A stretch of DNA of 59,853 bases from Escherichia phage KS_A8, in sequence record PP627279.1; one strand, written 5' to 3'. Shown in pieces: positions 1 through 58,051 of this stretch. A model generated the notes under the pieces. It searched no databases and had not been told where the DNA came from. It worked only from the letters and a program-made list of their open reading frames with translations. Numbering within the stretch: the stretch's first letter is position 1; the number at the start of each line of letters is the position of its first letter. Made by a program: the position numbers and the translations under genes.

Positions 1-558
1 ATGAACGGGGCAAGTCAAGAGCAATATGATCGTGACTGGACGAATTACATCCAGTATGCAAATAGCTTGTCCGCTGAAGAGATGGCAATACGTGACAAAG
101 TTGTTGCTGAGTACATGTTCGACTACAATTGGACTAACGCTTGCATGAGATGCGGGTTCAATGCTATGTTTGCACAGGAGCTTGGCCAACGCTTTGCCAC
201 GGACTGTTATGTTCGATGGAAGCTCAAGGAGATTGAAAGATCCCGTGTTCAACGTACTTCTGAGCAAGCTAACATTGAAGCAGACCTTGAGCGTCAGCAT
301 ATCATTGAAGCATTAAAACGTGAAGCTCATTATACAGGACCGGGATCTTCTCAAGCTGCTAGAGTCGCCGCATTGGGCAAGCTTGCACAAATTTATGATT
401 TGGATGCTCCCAAGAAGGCTAAGATTGATGTTACTAACAGAGGTGGCGTAATGATAGTCCCTGCTGTAGCAAATATTGACGAATGGGAAAAAACTGCATC
501 CGAGTCTCAACAACGACTAGTTAAAGAGACTGAAGATGGAGCTAAACCGACAACCTGA
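1..558 (+). CDS. terminase small subunit (putative)
   Basis: 185-aa ORF directly upstream of and overlapping the large terminase; ATG at position 1 is served by RBS AAGAAAGGGGG at the window end, implying circular wrap. Function by position only. Confidence 0.4.
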   Translation: MNGASQEQYDRDWTNYIQYANSLSAEEMAIRDKVVAEYMFDYNWTNACMRCGFNAMFAQELGQRFATDCYVRWKLKEIERSRVQRTSEQANIEADLERQHIIEALKREAHYTGPGSSQAARVAALGKLAQIYDLDAPKKAKIDVTNRGGVMIVPAVANIDEWEKTASESQQRLVKETEDGAKPTT

Positions 559-2095
559 TAACATGCCGCGAGTCGTCTGGAAACCACATCCAGGTTCACA
601 GACACTCGCTCTATCCTGCCCCGCTGATATTATCCTATACCACGGAACTCGCGGTCCTGGAAAAACGGACTGCCAGCTTATGCGTTTCCGTAAGAATGTT
701 GGTGTAGGGTACGGTAAATTTTGGAAGGGTATTATATTCGACCGTGAATATAAAAACCTTGATGACCTTGTAACTAAATCCCAGCGTTGGTTTCCTGAAT
801 TTAAAGACGGGGCTAAATTCCTTAGTTCTAAGTCTGATTATAAATGGGTTTGGCCTACTGGTGAAGAGCTACTGTTCCGCGTTGCTTGTAAAGAAAAGGA
901 TTACTGGTCTTATCACGGTCACGAATACCCATTTATCGGATGGAACGAATTGACAAAATATCCGGACGGGCGTTTGTTTGAAGCTATGATGTCCTGTAAC
1001 CGTTCATCTTTCCTACCAGAAGATAACCCAATTATCAATCCAGATGGTACGGTTACATATTTACCGGATATCCCTCTTGAAGTGTTTGCTACCAGTAACC
1101 CGTTCGGTGCGGGGCATAACTGGGTTAAGAAACGCTTCATTGACGCTGCACCGATGGGTAAAATACTCAGGAAGACTACGCGAGTGTTTAACCCGAGGAC
1201 GCAGAAAGACGAAGATGTGGTTACGACGCAATGCCATATCTTTGGTTCGTACCGTGAAAACAAAAACCTAAGTCCAAAATATATTGCAGAACTTATGTCT
1301 ATCACAGACCCGAACAAGCGTGCTGCATGGTTGGGCGGGAGCTGGGATATTACATCCGGTGGTATGTTCGATGATCTGTGGCGTAGCACTGTTCACAAAG
1401 TACGACCATTCCCGATTCCAGCGAGTTGGAAGATTACACGTTCTTTCGACTGGGGTTCTTCAAAACCGTTCTCTGTCGGTTGGTGGGCTATTAGTGATGG
1501 TTCGGATGTTGTGCGTGAAGATGGCACTACATTCTCCACGGTCCGCGGTGACCTGTTTAGGATTAACGAATGGTATGGGACCAACGGTAAAACAAACGAA
1601 GGTCTACATTTGCTGGACTCAGAAATTGCAAGCGGTATACTGGAGCGGGAATTGGCCTGGGGTATACACGATCGTGTAGTTCCTGGTCCTGCGGATAACT
1701 CCATTTGGGATCTGGAGAACAATAACTCCACCGCTGCAACAATGGCGAAGAAAATTCGTCTTAACGGGAAGTTATACAACGGTATACATTGGAAGCGCAG
1801 TGATAAGTCTGCTGGGTCACGTAAACGAGGCTGGCAGAAAATGCGTGAGTTCCTTAAAGCTGCACTGCGGGAAGATGCGAACGGTAAACCTTTGCCCGGT
1901 CCGCGCGAGAATCCGGCAATGTACATTTTTGATAACTGCAACTATTTCTTTGAGCTGGTTCCAAGTCTACCTCGCGATGAAGTAGATCAGGACGACGTTG
2001 ATACGGAATGTGAAGACCATATGGGTGATGAAGTTCGTTATATGGTTCTGGATCAAGCTGTTTATACAGGTGTTGGCAAAACTATCGGTATTTAA
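536..2095 (+). CDS. terL: terminase large subunit
   Basis: 519 aa; N-terminal P-loop-like HGTRGPGKTD; sits between small terminase and portal. Alternative start ATG at 563 just after the upstream stop. Confidence 0.8.
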   Translation: MELNRQPDNMPRVVWKPHPGSQTLALSCPADIILYHGTRGPGKTDCQLMRFRKNVGVGYGKFWKGIIFDREYKNLDDLVTKSQRWFPEFKDGAKFLSSKSDYKWVWPTGEELLFRVACKEKDYWSYHGHEYPFIGWNELTKYPDGRLFEAMMSCNRSSFLPEDNPIINPDGTVTYLPDIPLEVFATSNPFGAGHNWVKKRFIDAAPMGKILRKTTRVFNPRTQKDEDVVTTQCHIFGSYRENKNLSPKYIAELMSITDPNKRAAWLGGSWDITSGGMFDDLWRSTVHKVRPFPIPASWKITRSFDWGSSKPFSVGWWAISDGSDVVREDGTTFSTVRGDLFRINEWYGTNGKTNEGLHLLDSEIASGILERELAWGIHDRVVPGPADNSIWDLENNNSTAATMAKKIRLNGKLYNGIHWKRSDKSAGSRKRGWQKMREFLKAALREDANGKPLPGPRENPAMYIFDNCNYFFELVPSLPRDEVDQDDVDTECEDHMGDEVRYMVLDQAVYTGVGKTIGI

Positions 2096-54593: not shown

Positions 54594-54946
54594 CATTAGA
54601 AGCTGCTGGATGCGAAGTATTAGATTTTGTTGAGTTTGGTTGTTATCAGGGTGAATGGCTTGCCCTGATAAGAAAAGATGGTGTATTGGGAGTTTGCGAA
54701 GGGTCTTATGGATCATGCTCTGGTTGCGATTCATTTCAAGCTGAATTTGGCTGGGATGATGATGAGGAAAGTCCCGATTATCAGAAACGTCTTGCTGAAT
54801 TTGGTGAAAGTTACTTACCAGCTAACAGCTTTGAAGAAATGATCGCCAAACTTCAAAAGGATGTTGAGAATTATGATTGGGATGACGATTATAAATCTAT
54901 GCTAGAAACTGTTCGTGAATGGCAGAAAAATATAGGACAAGTATAA
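54578..54946 (+). CDS. hypothetical Cys-containing acidic protein
   Basis: 122 aa with CEGSYGSCSGCD cysteine cluster. Confidence 0.3.
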   Translation: MSYQLALEAAGCEVLDFVEFGCYQGEWLALIRKDGVLGVCEGSYGSCSGCDSFQAEFGWDDDEESPDYQKRLAEFGESYLPANSFEEMIAKLQKDVENYDWDDDYKSMLETVREWQKNIGQV

Positions 54947-54997
54947 TTATCAATCTATAATGGGCTCTACGGAGCCCTTAATTATCTGGAGGTTGTT

Positions 54998-55715: not shown

Positions 55716-55981
55716 TTACCGCTCAAGAAGCTCGTGAATTAAGCGATAAGCTGGATATTAGCGAAGATATTGAATTTATCAGTAACAGCATTCGCGTAGC
55801 TGCTACAAAGGGATACAATAAAGTATCACTGGTAACAAAATACGGATCTGTTGGCAATCCCGACACTCAAGACCCAACCACTATGAAGATTGCTAAATGG
55901 TTAGCTGATTCTGGTTTTACGGTGTTATATTATCCTTCCATGGACCAACGTGATAACGAGCGTACTGAGGTAGCATGGTGA
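55712..55981 (+). CDS. hypothetical protein
   Basis: 89-aa ORF. Confidence 0.3.
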   Translation: MITAQEARELSDKLDISEDIEFISNSIRVAATKGYNKVSLVTKYGSVGNPDTQDPTTMKIAKWLADSGFTVLYYPSMDQRDNERTEVAW

Positions 55982-56048
55982 TTGAAGAAAATATCAAATA
56001 TTGGAAAGGCTTTATTGACGAAATGTTGAAACCATTGGAGAAGAAATA

Positions 56049-56441
56049 ATGCTATTAGTCGTCACCGGAGGTCGAGATTTTAAGCATGTGGAGTATATTT
56101 ATGCTCAATTGGATAAGCTGCATATGCAAAGAAGGATAACCACACTTCGCCACGGTGACGCTGACGGTGTTGACCGCATTTGCGCACAGTGGGCAGAGCG
56201 CAACGGTATTAAGACAGAAGCGTTCCCTGCCCCGTGGGACAATCTTTCCTTACCAAATACCAAGATACGGTATAACGCTAAGGGTGCTTATAATGCACAA
56301 GCTGGCGCTTACCGCAATCAATTAATGCTGGATACTGATCCTAAACCAGATCACGCTATTGTGTTTCCTGGCGGAGCTGGTACTATGGATATGTACAGAC
56401 GGATTAAAGCATCCGGTATCCCTTACACATTAGCGGAGTAA
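56049..56441 (+). CDS. SLOG/LOG-family Rossmann-fold protein (DprA/LOG-like, putative)
   Basis: 130 aa; N-terminal VVTGGRDF and C-terminal VFPGGAGTMDM resemble the LOG-family PGGxGT motif. Confidence 0.35.
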   Translation: MLLVVTGGRDFKHVEYIYAQLDKLHMQRRITTLRHGDADGVDRICAQWAERNGIKTEAFPAPWDNLSLPNTKIRYNAKGAYNAQAGAYRNQLMLDTDPKPDHAIVFPGGAGTMDMYRRIKASGIPYTLAE

Positions 56442-56444
56442 ATA

Positions 56445-56915
56445 ATGGCTGACGTTAAAACTATTGTTGATGCAATGGACGAATCCAAAGACTGCCAACT
56501 GAAGAAGTCGTTTGAAGTAAAACAGGTTACAGAGACTCAGTTAGTCTGTAATTTTGCGCGTTATTGTGGACTGGGGCGCGGGAAAGACTGGAACGGGCTT
56601 ATTGTTATGCCCACATCACAGATCCTCGTTTACGTCCGCAATATTGTAGAAGATCTTTTGCGTCTTCAAATAGATATCGGTGATGTAGAAATTAATATGA
56701 CCGCGAGCTCTACCATTGTGGTTAAATGGCAGTCGGGCGAGACACTGCGTTTGGAAGCGTGCCATTGTGCTAAGAGCTTGCACCACCTGCGAGGCTGTCA
56801 TTACCAGTTCGTTGGGTTTGTACATCCGCAAGGGTTAAGCGAGCGTACGGCGCTTGTAGCGCGTTTGCTGCTGCGTCCTTATAATAACGAGCCGGAAGTT
56901 ATATACGAGGCATAA
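56445..56915 (+). CDS. hypothetical protein
   Basis: 156 aa with several Cys/His. Confidence 0.3.
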   Translation: MADVKTIVDAMDESKDCQLKKSFEVKQVTETQLVCNFARYCGLGRGKDWNGLIVMPTSQILVYVRNIVEDLLRLQIDIGDVEINMTASSTIVVKWQSGETLRLEACHCAKSLHHLRGCHYQFVGFVHPQGLSERTALVARLLLRPYNNEPEVIYEA

Positions 56916-56916
56916 A

Positions 56917-57342
56917 ATGTCAGTAAATTTTGTCAAACAGCCAACTTTAAATACATGCGTTTCTGCGTGTTTGGCAATGATCCTTAATAAACCTGTTGAG
57001 AAGGTTATTGAGGAATTTCATAGTCGTTATTATAACAACTGGGAGATCACTATCAGCGAATATTTGACTAAAAACGGCGTCCAGCATCATTGTTCAGAAG
57101 GTGGTGGGCGTGAAACTTTGCATATGGGAGGTTTGTTCCTGTGCACGGTGCCAAGTCTTAATATTCCTGGCGCATTGCACCAGATTGTGATTGATATGAC
57201 GGATCACAAGTTTATTGTGCATGATCCAATTAAAGGATGGGAAGGTAAAAAGTTCTATGTTGGTCCGGATCAAGATCCTGAAGAGCCTGGAGCTTTTATC
57301 ATTCATACTTGGGTCAAAGACGTTGAAATCCTGCCTTATTAA
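56917..57342 (+). CDS. papain-like cysteine peptidase (C39-like, putative)
   Basis: 141 aa; QPTLNTCVSACLAMIL fits the C39 Q...C..A.LAMI pattern; downstream HKFIVHDP histidine motif. Confidence 0.45.
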   Translation: MSVNFVKQPTLNTCVSACLAMILNKPVEKVIEEFHSRYYNNWEITISEYLTKNGVQHHCSEGGGRETLHMGGLFLCTVPSLNIPGALHQIVIDMTDHKFIVHDPIKGWEGKKFYVGPDQDPEEPGAFIIHTWVKDVEILPY

Positions 57343-57404: not shown

Positions 57405-57590
57405 ATGACCAAACTATACGCCGGATTGTTTTTATTTGCGACGTTGATGTTCGCTGGGCTTTATACCTATACAGTAGTCGAACAACCTTCCACGGTTATC
57501 CGAATCTTTGCAAGTACAGGGCTTTGCATCTGTCTTATTCTATTTGTTTTATGCATTGTTATTATCCAAGACCAAAGGAAAGTTAAATGA
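57405..57590 (+). CDS. small two-helix membrane protein
   Basis: 61 aa, two hydrophobic helices. Confidence 0.3.
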   Translation: MTKLYAGLFLFATLMFAGLYTYTVVEQPSTVIRIFASTGLCICLILFVLCIVIIQDQRKVK

Positions 57591-58051
57591 CCACAATTGC
57601 GTTTGATGGAAAAGTATTAGCTGCGGACCGTGGCGTTATGCGCGGGGAAGCTGTGACTGCTTATAAGAAAGTTCATAGCGTGAATGGACATCGTGGACGG
57701 TTTTTACTGGGCTTGTGCGGTTTGACAGCATTTACCGATCAGGTGTTGCGTTATTTTAATAGCGCGGAACCTGTTAAGTTCCCTGATATTAAACTTTACA
57801 GCAAAGATGATGATTACGGGCAAACTTGCGGTCTTGCTATCACTCCGGAAGGTACTTGCCATTTTATTTATAATGATGGTACTTTGAGCGAGCCCATGCT
57901 GGATGGATGGGGATCTGAGGGTAGCGGTTGTGTGTTTGCCGCTGGTGCATTAGCCGCTGGTGCAAGCGCAAGCGAAGCCATTGAGCTGGCAATTAAACAC
58001 ACCACATGCGCATTCCTGGGAGTTGATACAATATCATTTGAGGGTTTTTAA
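57587..58051 (+). CDS. Ntn-hydrolase fold protein, HslV/proteasome beta-like (putative)
   Basis: 154 aa; begins MTTIAFDGK (Thr at position 2 as potential N-terminal nucleophile); Gly-rich GSEGSGCVFAAGALAAGAS resembles the HslV GSGG segment (from memory). Confidence 0.3.
   Translation: MTTIAFDGKVLAADRGVMRGEAVTAYKKVHSVNGHRGRFLLGLCGLTAFTDQVLRYFNSAEPVKFPDIKLYSKDDDYGQTCGLAITPEGTCHFIYNDGTLSEPMLDGWGSEGSGCVFAAGALAAGASASEAIELAIKHTTCAFLGVDTISFEGF

Follow-up and report, generated by a model that had tools for sequence, protein, structure and literature searches.

A standalone YpsA-like SLOG protein of the YAcAr family in Escherichia phage KS_A8, orthologous to an anti-Avs3 candidate

The DNA considered here is the 59,853-nucleotide (nt) record PP627279.1 of Escherichia phage KS_A8, which is called the window and to which all coordinates refer; the element in question is the open reading frame (ORF) at 56049-56441 on the plus strand, which is preceded by a Shine-Dalgarno sequence (Table 1). 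The ORF stands as it had been drawn in a previous reading made from the letters alone (the sequence-only reading), and its product of 130 amino acids (aa) contains both of the motifs quoted there, VVTGGRDF at aa 4-11 and PGGAGTMDM at aa 107-115. Nearly the whole genome of a CAjan-like Seuratvirus is contained in the window, which shows 97-98% identity to CAjan, Greed, and relatives; the gene belongs to a series of small, rightward-oriented accessory genes that precedes the lysis cassette. CAjan, a ~97% match to the window, is annotated with DpdA, FolE, QueD, a preQ0 transporter, QueC, and QueE; ORFs of the window correspond to these DpdA and que annotations, and therefore KS_A8 was rightly described as a modified-base phage. 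The product shows 100% aa identity to CAjan gp82 and 98% to ORF83 of the Seuratvirus Dru_SM1, and going by the latter orthologue the KS_A8 gene is a non-essential accessory gene. It is almost certain that the protein is a standalone SLOG (SMF/DprA/LOG) domain of the YAcAr family, belonging to the YpsA-like clade and orthologous to Dru_SM1 ORF83.

The sole Pfam match of the protein is PF10686 (YAcAr), with E=2.1e-18 and 66.3 bits against a cut-off of 28.2; this family, described as "YspA, cpYpsA-related SLOG family", was formerly DUF2493 and carries the InterPro name "Mycobacteriophage D29 gp61". This match confirms the proposed membership of the Rossmannoid SLOG superfamily. Among the profiles that had been suggested as a check, DUF2493 was thus recovered, but neither PF03641 (Lysine_decarbox/LOG) nor PF02481 (DprA) was matched at E<=1 in the Pfam search. 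PHROG 289 ("GTP-binding domain") is matched at E=1.8e-23, PADLOC and a single-sequence search of the PDB returned zero matches, and the only match listed by NCBIfam, to TrmH, is sub-threshold (11.7 bits versus a cut-off of 227). An AlphaFold2 (AF2) model made from 19 sequences, with a predicted local distance difference test score (pLDDT) of 95.4, comprises a single 130-aa domain and predicts a Rossmannoid three-layer alpha/beta fold with a parallel sheet, like that of the solved SLOG members; the closest fold match is Bacillus subtilis YpsA, and structures of LOG and YgdH also rank near the top. The glycine-rich loops GGR (aa 7-9) and PGGAGT (aa 107-112) are conserved across the 168 relatives over which residue conservation was counted (166 non-gap rows in the case of the GGR loop). 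G40-V41-D42, with G40 in 167 and D42 in all 168 of these relatives, constitutes the GxD/E motif that is the signature of the YpsA clade (PMC6459960). Indeed, all of the family-invariant residues (G7, R9, G36, D42, G86, R89, N90, G111, and T112) are kept in the KS_A8 protein, which also has a hairpin insert of ~20 aa that is missing in many family members and is common to a subfamily found in other phages (loci L029, L030, and L033).

Table 1. Features of the SLOG gene and its product, and other genes of the window to which the text refers. Correspondences with LOG and DprA residues follow a sequence register anchored on the ungapped PGGxGT motif, not a three-dimensional superposition.
Feature	Coordinates	Strand	Remarks
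KS_A8 SLOG gene	56049..56441	+	ATG-initiated ORF, 130 aa; CAjan gp82, Dru_SM1 ORF83
Shine-Dalgarno GGAG	56037..56040	+	8 nt 5' of the SLOG-gene ATG; read off the sequence
G7-G8-R9 loop after strand 1	56067..56075	+	G7 166/166, R9 165/166 non-gap rows; DprA "G-S/T/A-R"-like
H35-G-D-A-D-G40-V-D42	56151..56174	+	contains the GxD/E signature; G36 and D42 168/168
~20-aa insert, aa 64-84	56238..56300	+	predicted basic beta-hairpin, strands 73-76 and 79-82 (alignment, AF2 model)
A85-G86-x-x-R89-N90-x-x-M93 helix	56301..56327	+	R89, N90 168/168; aligned with LOG Arg155-Lys156 and DprA Arg143-Asn144
F106-PGGAGT112-M-D114-M115 phosphate-binding loop	56364..56393	+	D114 aligned with LOG Asp177; M115 aligned with LOG Glu178
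Phage Arg89			aligned with Cg1261 Arg155, catalytic
Phage Asn90			invariant; aligned with Cg1261 Lys156, essential
Phage Asp114			aligned with Cg1261 Asp177, adenine contact
Phage Met115			aligned with Cg1261 Glu178, catalytic
156-aa terminase-like gene	56445..56915	+	3 nt 3' of the SLOG gene; CAjan gp83, Dru_SM1 ORF84
Large terminase TerL	536-2095		Pfam Terminase_6N
dpdA/folE/queD/queC/queE cluster	~28.8-34.4 kb	-	window ORFs corresponding to CAjan annotations

The YAcAr family comprises 6019 clusters at 50% identity (E<=1e-3) and, in a profile search, at least 6965 clusters at 90% identity; it is represented in giant viruses as well as in 799 of 50,697 phage records. Nearly all of the best 120 profile matches are standalone proteins of ~130 aa, as are at least 95% of the close relatives, and occasional fusions join YAcAr to the CHC2 zinc ribbon of DnaG, NADAR, DUF4326, DUF4926, or a second YAcAr copy. 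Apparent fusion ORFs of 280-390 aa at loci from IMG/VR were discarded as artefacts of longest-ORF calling in high-GC DNA. Isoelectric points (pI) have a median of 9.1 in the family and exceed 8 in 72% of its members; that of the KS_A8 protein is 9.07. As a separate observation, the segment AFPGGAGTEKM within aa 503-538 of the anti-restriction protein DarA of the P1-like phage SJ46 (L007, 977-2893) resembles the phosphate loop of YAcAr (E=0.043 by hmmsearch; 84% over 31 columns by hhalign); no match was seen at the level of the fold, and the likeness is therefore probably local only.

The sequence-only reading had further proposed that the protein is a LOG-type enzyme cleaving the N-glycosidic bond of nucleotides. 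The hallmark of LOG is PGGxGTxxE together with a catalytic Arg/Glu pair, the catalytic Glu being E122 in CgLOG and E178 in Cg1261 (PMC5379747; CgLOG PMC4979012), and the R155A, K156A, T175A, and E178A mutants of Cg1261 are all inactive (PMC5379747). In our register, 107-PGGAGTMDM-115 of the phage protein stands against 170-PGGFGTLDE-178 of Cg1261, and because Met115 is placed at the position of Glu178, the LOG catalytic Glu is missing. Position 115 is Met in 150 and Cys in 12 of the 168 relatives and is never Asp or Glu, and at the D114 position Asn is found in 16 and His in 7 of them. The protein thus appears to lack the catalytic Glu and the Arg-Lys pair (Arg89-Asn90 instead) as well as a PF03641 match, and the claim that it is a LOG-type phosphoribohydrolase could not be upheld. 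On the other hand, the SLOG pocket is kept, including the GGR loop, GxD, Arg89-Asn90, the PGGxGT loop, and Asp114. Since this pocket is retained but the LOG catalytic Glu and Lys are not, the likeliest activity of the protein is binding, without cleavage, of a nucleotide unit that carries a phosphate.

A phenotype has been published for the orthologue. Ojima et al. plated a knockout library of Dru_SM1 on Escherichia coli DH10B carrying defence systems (bioRxiv 10.1101/2024.04.14.589459). Deletions of ORF55 (an ATP-dependent DNA ligase), ORF72, ORF83, and ORF84 lowered plating on AVAST type III (Avs3) and gave small plaques (10.1101/2024.04.14.589459). ORF83 was predicted to be "Smf/DprA", and the supplementary primer table lists it as "GTP-binding domain", with the deletion obtained and the phenotype "AVAST type3" (10.1101/2024.04.14.589459). 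Its deletion changed plating on AVAST type III only, whereas phages with deletions in ORF41-48, the modification region, became sensitive to BREX and restriction-like systems; plating on Avs3 fell most when ORF84 was deleted (1e-4), with an additional loss on qatABCD, and deletion of ORF85 sensitised the phage to qatABCD (10.1101/2024.04.14.589459). The two halves of the ORF83 deletion primers map to the window at 56032-56051 (0 mismatches, ending in ATG) and 56418-56452 (1 mismatch), which together with the 98% aa identity and the conserved synteny identifies the KS_A8 gene as the orthologue of this anti-Avs3 gene.

The EVADES preprint lists ORF83 as an anti-Avs protein with a pocket formed by R89, N90, T112, and D114 (bioRxiv 10.1101/2025.06.06.658234). 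It reports an AlphaFold3 (AF3) co-fold with AMP that has an interface predicted template modelling score (ipTM) of 0.9, proposes AMP binding and phosphoribohydrolase activity, and pairs the catalytic Glu178 with D114 by structural proximity; it also describes ORF83 as being devoid of the DprA residues for dimerisation and RecA binding (10.1101/2025.06.06.658234). Avs3 becomes active when it binds a phage protein, and the large terminase is bound by it (10.1101/2025.06.06.658234; PDB 8dgc), and the Avs effectors are predominantly non-specific DNA nucleases (10.1101/2025.06.06.658234). According to Iyer et al. (2022), viral SLOG domains are mostly YpsA-like and are predicted to sense or degrade immune signals derived from ADP-ribose (ADPr) (PMC9503650). 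Consequently, the family, the phage occurrence, and the anti-defence phenotype of the orthologue of this gene are already in the literature, and the mechanism is not. The idea that the protein might interfere with host nucleotide signalling survives in part: a role in phage-host conflict agrees with the published status of ORF83 as an anti-defence candidate, but Avs3, the defence affected, senses a protein and is not a nucleotide-signalling system.

The gene immediately downstream of the SLOG gene, the equivalent of ORF84, has no Pfam match, and its AF2 model has a pLDDT of 74 and a predicted template modelling score (pTM) of 0.74. Homologues occur in Seuratvirus-like phages only and are always located beside YAcAr in the contigs examined. 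In hhalign, aa 29-126 of this protein align with aa 44-137 of TerL encoded in the window (probability 81%, E=1.2e-5, 28% identity); the alignment places GLGRGKDWNG, of which GLGRGKD is P-loop-like, against GVGYGKFWKG. When a hidden Markov model (HMM) of the ORF84 family was compared with every ORF fragment of the window, TerL was the best non-self match (E=0.0027). By these alignments, the ORF84 equivalent looks like a truncated paralogue of the ATPase domain of the phage's own large terminase. Because the large terminase is the protein that Avs3 binds, one may speculate, at rather long odds, that the SLOG gene and ORF84 form a two-gene anti-Avs3 cassette in which ORF84 would divert, as a decoy, the domain of Avs3 that senses the terminase, and in which the SLOG protein would assist it, for example by binding a nucleotide or DNA on which the Avs3 sensor or nuclease effector acts. 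No proposal of a terminase-ATPase decoy was found in the literature searched; if true, a virus that copies its own terminase to blind a pattern-recognition receptor would exemplify a new anti-defence principle.

The surroundings of YAcAr genes elsewhere were analysed by clustering the neighbours at 80 IMG/VR YAcAr loci. The commonest neighbours were a DEAD/ResIII helicase, the DnaN clamp, a Cas4-type exonuclease, an endolysin, a sigma-like protein, DnaB, DNA polymerase, and an MT-A70 methylase. Homologues of the helicase, the Cas4-type exonuclease, and the DUF669 protein of KS_A8 itself were located within 5 kb at 14, 12, and 6 of the 80 loci, respectively, and the helicase is often encoded directly 3' of YAcAr. 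By Pfam annotation, individual contigs display the orders YqaJ-x-SSB-x-YAcAr-DEAD/ResIII helicase (in a putative prophage region), DnaN ... sigma-YAcAr-DEAD/ResIII helicase, and MTase-x-YAcAr-D5 primase-helicase. Among named phages, YAcAr is found in the context primase / C5-methylase-YAcAr-HNH-ParB in Solent, follows the polymerase in KpTRp1, and forms the order DnaB-x-YAcAr-esterase-EndoVII-primase in mycobacteriophage Veracruz; Iggyvirus-like phages have clamp-YAcAr-polymerase. In one Iggyvirus, Pseudomonas virus PBPA162 (MK816297.1; L094, 9783-10274), the YAcAr gene (HMM E=2.7e-35) is unannotated in the GenBank record and is positioned between the clamp gene and a large downstream ORF, ~1 kb from dpdA. 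Published YAcAr fusions are to the SF1B helicase HelB and to DciA, and the viral SLOG fusions described by Aravind's group are to HTH, HNH, exonuclease, SF1 helicase, Macro, NADAR, and DUF4326 domains (PMC9503650).

We tentatively prefer, with a probability of about 0.4, a DNA-associated, DprA-like binding role that supports replication and recombination. The ligand would be a nucleotide inside single-stranded DNA (ssDNA) or at a DNA end, and the protein would act as a DprA-like accessory of the helicase, Cas4-type exonuclease, and annealase of the phage replication-recombination machinery. DNA cleavage by the nuclease effector of Avs3 might then be repaired or tolerated with its help, as with the DNA ligase ORF55. 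Such a repair role would explain the lower plating on Avs3, because Avs effectors are mostly DNA nucleases and the knockout of the ligase, the other named anti-Avs3 gene (10.1101/2025.06.06.658234), has the same phenotype. In Helicobacter pylori DprA, the ssDNA-binding signatures are G-S/T/A-R and F/L/Y-x-x-R-N/D, and Arg52, Arg143, and Asn144 hold one ssDNA base (PMC3950713). In the alignment, GGR and R-N of the phage protein coincide with DprA Arg52 and Arg143/Asn144, although GGR has Gly in place of S/T/A, and Gly86 occupies the aromatic position ahead of the R-N pair. The basic pI, the helicase, Cas4, clamp, and polymerase neighbours, and the CHC2, HelB, and DciA fusions may point the same way. 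A number of considerations weigh against this role. The motif comparisons follow a sequence register instead of superposed structures. The AMP co-fold and the phosphoribohydrolase proposal in which D114 takes the part of the catalytic Glu, and the lack of DprA-type dimerisation and RecA-binding residues in ORF83 (10.1101/2025.06.06.658234), also speak against it, and the NADAR and DUF4326 fusions and the viral SLOG survey (PMC9503650) point to small ligands derived from ADP-ribose. The KS_A8 gene itself is situated outside the replication module, in the accessory block 5' of the lysis cassette, and the replication-module location elsewhere equally fits a nucleotide-pool enzyme. Finally, plasmid rescue of the ORF83 knockout is not explicitly stated in the accessible part of Ojima et al. 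(10.1101/2024.04.14.589459).

The main rival, which we regard as somewhat unlikely, is that the protein is a small-molecule binder or a catalytic N-glycosidase that acts on AMP or on a molecule derived from NAD or ADPr, such as a signal resembling cyclic ADPr (cADPR), through Arg89, Asp114, and Asp42, and thereby removes a host nucleotide or signal. The PGGxGT loop, Arg89, Thr112, and Asp114 are common to LOG, the fold matches include LOG and YgdH, the AMP co-fold reaches an ipTM of 0.9 (10.1101/2025.06.06.658234), and the ADPr-signal prediction of Iyer et al. (2022) is accompanied by Macro, NADAR, and DUF4326 fusions (PMC9503650), the latter two of which were also observed here. However, the catalytic Glu is replaced by Met or Cys family-wide and the Lys by Asn, and the corresponding E178A and K156A mutations abolish LOG activity (PMC5379747); the Asn or His found at the D114 position in 23 of the 168 relatives is poor conservation for a catalytic acid, and the CAjan annotations include no gene for a Macro, NADAR, Nudix, or ART protein. 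Moreover, because Avs3 is activated by a phage protein and not by a diffusible nucleotide, signal degradation does not explain the only known phenotype. A further explanation, which is distinctly less credible, assigns the Avs3 phenotype to ORF84: deletion of the SLOG gene would lower ORF84 expression, or the two genes would work as one cassette, and the SLOG protein would have no anti-Avs3 activity of its own. The 3-nt spacing of the two genes, the conservation of the ORF83-ORF84 pair in relatives at 56-70% identity, the resemblance of ORF84 to the ATPase domain of the TerL that Avs3 binds (PDB 8dgc), and the greater effect of the ORF84 knockout (1e-4) are consistent with this explanation, and Ojima et al. 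themselves caution about polar effects (10.1101/2024.04.14.589459). Against it, the ORF83 deletion was designed to leave in place the ATG, the final 8 codons and the stop codon, and also the ribosome-binding site of ORF84; ORF83 is among the anti-defence genes of Ojima et al. and in the EVADES collection, and ORF84 is not; and YAcAr is encoded by hundreds of phages without an ORF84-like neighbour.

The proposal that a LOG-like glycosidase supplies or recycles bases for 7-deazaguanine (preQ0) DNA modification, with which the sequence-only reading had linked the gene to the modified base, is largely refuted and now highly improbable, even though the phage carries the DpdA pathway and YAcAr is encoded near dpdA in a few elements. 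These exceptions are PBPA162 and locus L050, with the order que genes-dpdA-clamp-YAcAr-polymerase (in PBPA162, ~1 kb with the clamp gene between), and a Mesorhizobium element with a DpdA-family gene ~3 kb upstream of YAcAr; in all of them YAcAr abuts replication genes. In KS_A8, the SLOG gene is separated from the dpdA/que cluster by 22 kb. The Nonagvirus 9g, which belongs to the same subfamily and has the complete pathway, revealed no YAcAr by tblastn or HMM in its first 50 kb; the same HMM gives 9e-59 on the window, and the remaining 6.7 kb of 9g contain tail genes only. DpdA is found in 236 phage records versus 799 for YAcAr, the genera are largely different, and most YAcAr phages lack DpdA. 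Salmonella phages account for 168 YAcAr records versus 3 DpdA records, Klebsiella phages contribute 108 YAcAr records and the ten genera named for DpdA do not include Klebsiella, and the Mycobacterium records sampled have genomes of ~67-77 kb (DpdA) versus ~50-65 kb (YAcAr), which suggests different phage groups. Genes for que or dpdA functions are located within 5 kb of YAcAr at 1 of the 80 IMG/VR loci, and YAcAr is located within 10 kb of DpdA at 0 of 7 DpdA loci, a weak count drawn from seven close relatives only. The substrate of DpdA is preQ0 as the free base, which QueC makes, and therefore a nucleotide glycosidase step is not needed. The missing LOG catalytic residues tell against base supply too, and the ORF83 knockout is free of the BREX and restriction sensitivity of the ORF41-48 knockouts. 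In view of this lack of co-location and co-occurrence with dpdA and que genes, it is very probable that the KS_A8 SLOG protein is not a component of the 7-deazaguanine modification pathway. Least credible of all is that a database label is right and the protein is a "GTP-binding domain" protein, a "phosphoribosyl transferase", or a bona fide DprA. Such names do occur in PHROG 289 and in GenBank/RefSeq records, where near-identical gene copies are labelled "GTP-binding domain", "phosphoribosyl transferase", "putative DNA binding protein", "DNA processing protein DprA", or "hypothetical protein"; but the labels contradict each other, none of them is supported by the domain searches, P-loop or G-domain motifs and phosphoribosyl transferase or DprA Pfam matches are absent, no NCBIfam match comes near its cut-off, and the SAM and winged-helix domains of DprA are lacking.

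Compared with known systems, the KS_A8 protein is nearest to Dru_SM1 ORF83 (PP596835.1, NGRRMQZB_95), with which it shares 128 of 130 residues, the genus, and the flanking genes; the differences are V14A and D95N, and Dru_SM1 has ORF85 (68 aa, anti-qatABCD) two genes downstream, unlike the window. The Avs3 phenotype is that of Dru_SM1 and is carried over to KS_A8 by orthology. Relative to YAcAr (PF10686) at large, the protein is typical in its profile, invariant residues, and standalone length of ~130 aa, but differs in its ~20-aa hairpin insert and in its location in an accessory block, where most relatives are encoded in a replication module. B. subtilis YpsA (PDB 2NX2) has the GxD/E signature in common with it; however, the identity is only 16%, and YpsA is a cellular protein of 178 aa (DUF1273) that acts as a cell-division inhibitor and oxidative-stress factor. 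The LOG proteins (CgLOG/Cg2612, Cg1261, TT1465, and PpnN/YgdH) resemble the phage protein in the PGGxGT loop, the Arg at the catalytic position, and the adenine-contact Asp, whereas the phage protein has Met for Glu, Asn for Lys, and GGR as its first loop, and has no PF03641 match. With DprA/Smf and the DprA-like antitoxin ShosA, it shares the G-x-R after strand 1 and the R-N pair of the pocket helix, but in comparison with DprA/Smf it is without the aromatic residue of F/L/Y-x-x-R-N (Gly86), SAM, the winged helix, and a PF02481 match. The SLOG sensor of Thoeris ThsA (PDB 7UXS, with 3'cADPR) is only 11% identical, and ThsA serves in host defence as a fusion with a SIR2 effector, whereas the KS_A8 protein is phage-encoded and carries no effector domain.

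YAcAr is a huge family that is inconsistently annotated as GTP-binding, phosphoribosyl transferase, DprA, or DNA-binding proteins. Since a viable knockout and a defence phenotype exist in the Seuratvirus lineage, this lineage is a good place to decide whether YpsA-like SLOG domains of viruses act as enzymes, as sensors or sponges of small molecules, or as factors that bind DNA. As for annotation, the label "YAcAr/SLOG family, anti-Avs3 candidate" is appropriate, and neither LOG nor the 7-deazaguanine pathway should be invoked. The terminase-like neighbour is a more surprising lead than the SLOG gene.

Several further observations concern the accessory block. A GTG-initiated mini-ORF of 23 codons (55978-56049, plus strand; VIEENIKYWKGFIDEMLKPLEKK) occupies the gap 5' of the SLOG gene; it shares nucleotides at its start with the stop codon of an upstream 89-aa gene (TGGTGA) and at its stop with the ATG of the SLOG gene (TAATG), an arrangement that may reflect translational coupling or chance. 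A strong GC hairpin with a T-rich tail (54962-54977, plus strand; GGGCTCTACGGAGCCC), alongside promoter-like hexamers at 54919-54961, may mark a transcription boundary just 5' of the SLOG gene block, in a scan that overall did not exceed the shuffled expectation (20 promoter-like sites versus 16.8, and 8 terminator-like sites versus 7.6). Downstream of the terminase-like gene, a 141-aa protein (56917-57342, plus strand) belongs to PHROG 4049 and has a weak N-terminal Peptidase_C39 match (E=0.037, QPTLNTCVSACLAMIL). In a divergent 61-kb relative (L031), the homologue of its gene overlaps the YAcAr start by 4 nt; deletion of its Dru_SM1 orthologue, ORF86, was not obtainable (bioRxiv 10.1101/2024.04.14.589459). 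Farther on, a 154-aa HslV/proteasome-like protein (57587-58051, plus strand; PHROG 1040, weak Pfam Proteasome match) starts with MTTIAFDG, with Thr after the initiator Met as in N-terminal nucleophile (Ntn) hydrolases, and its gene is present also in 9g (gp44) and immediately 3' of YAcAr in L031. The notion that the papain/C39-like, YAcAr, and HslV-like peptidase genes form a system was rejected, as the tight linkage is limited to L031; shared ancestry is a simpler account, because HslV and C39-like genes are otherwise missing at YAcAr loci. Lastly, Dru_SM1, Greed, and several other Seuratviruses contain an extra 68-aa gene, namely Dru_SM1 ORF85 (L092, 4369-4575), at the site between 56915 and 56917, which is not found in the window or CAjan and thus represents a presence/absence polymorphism of the accessory block.

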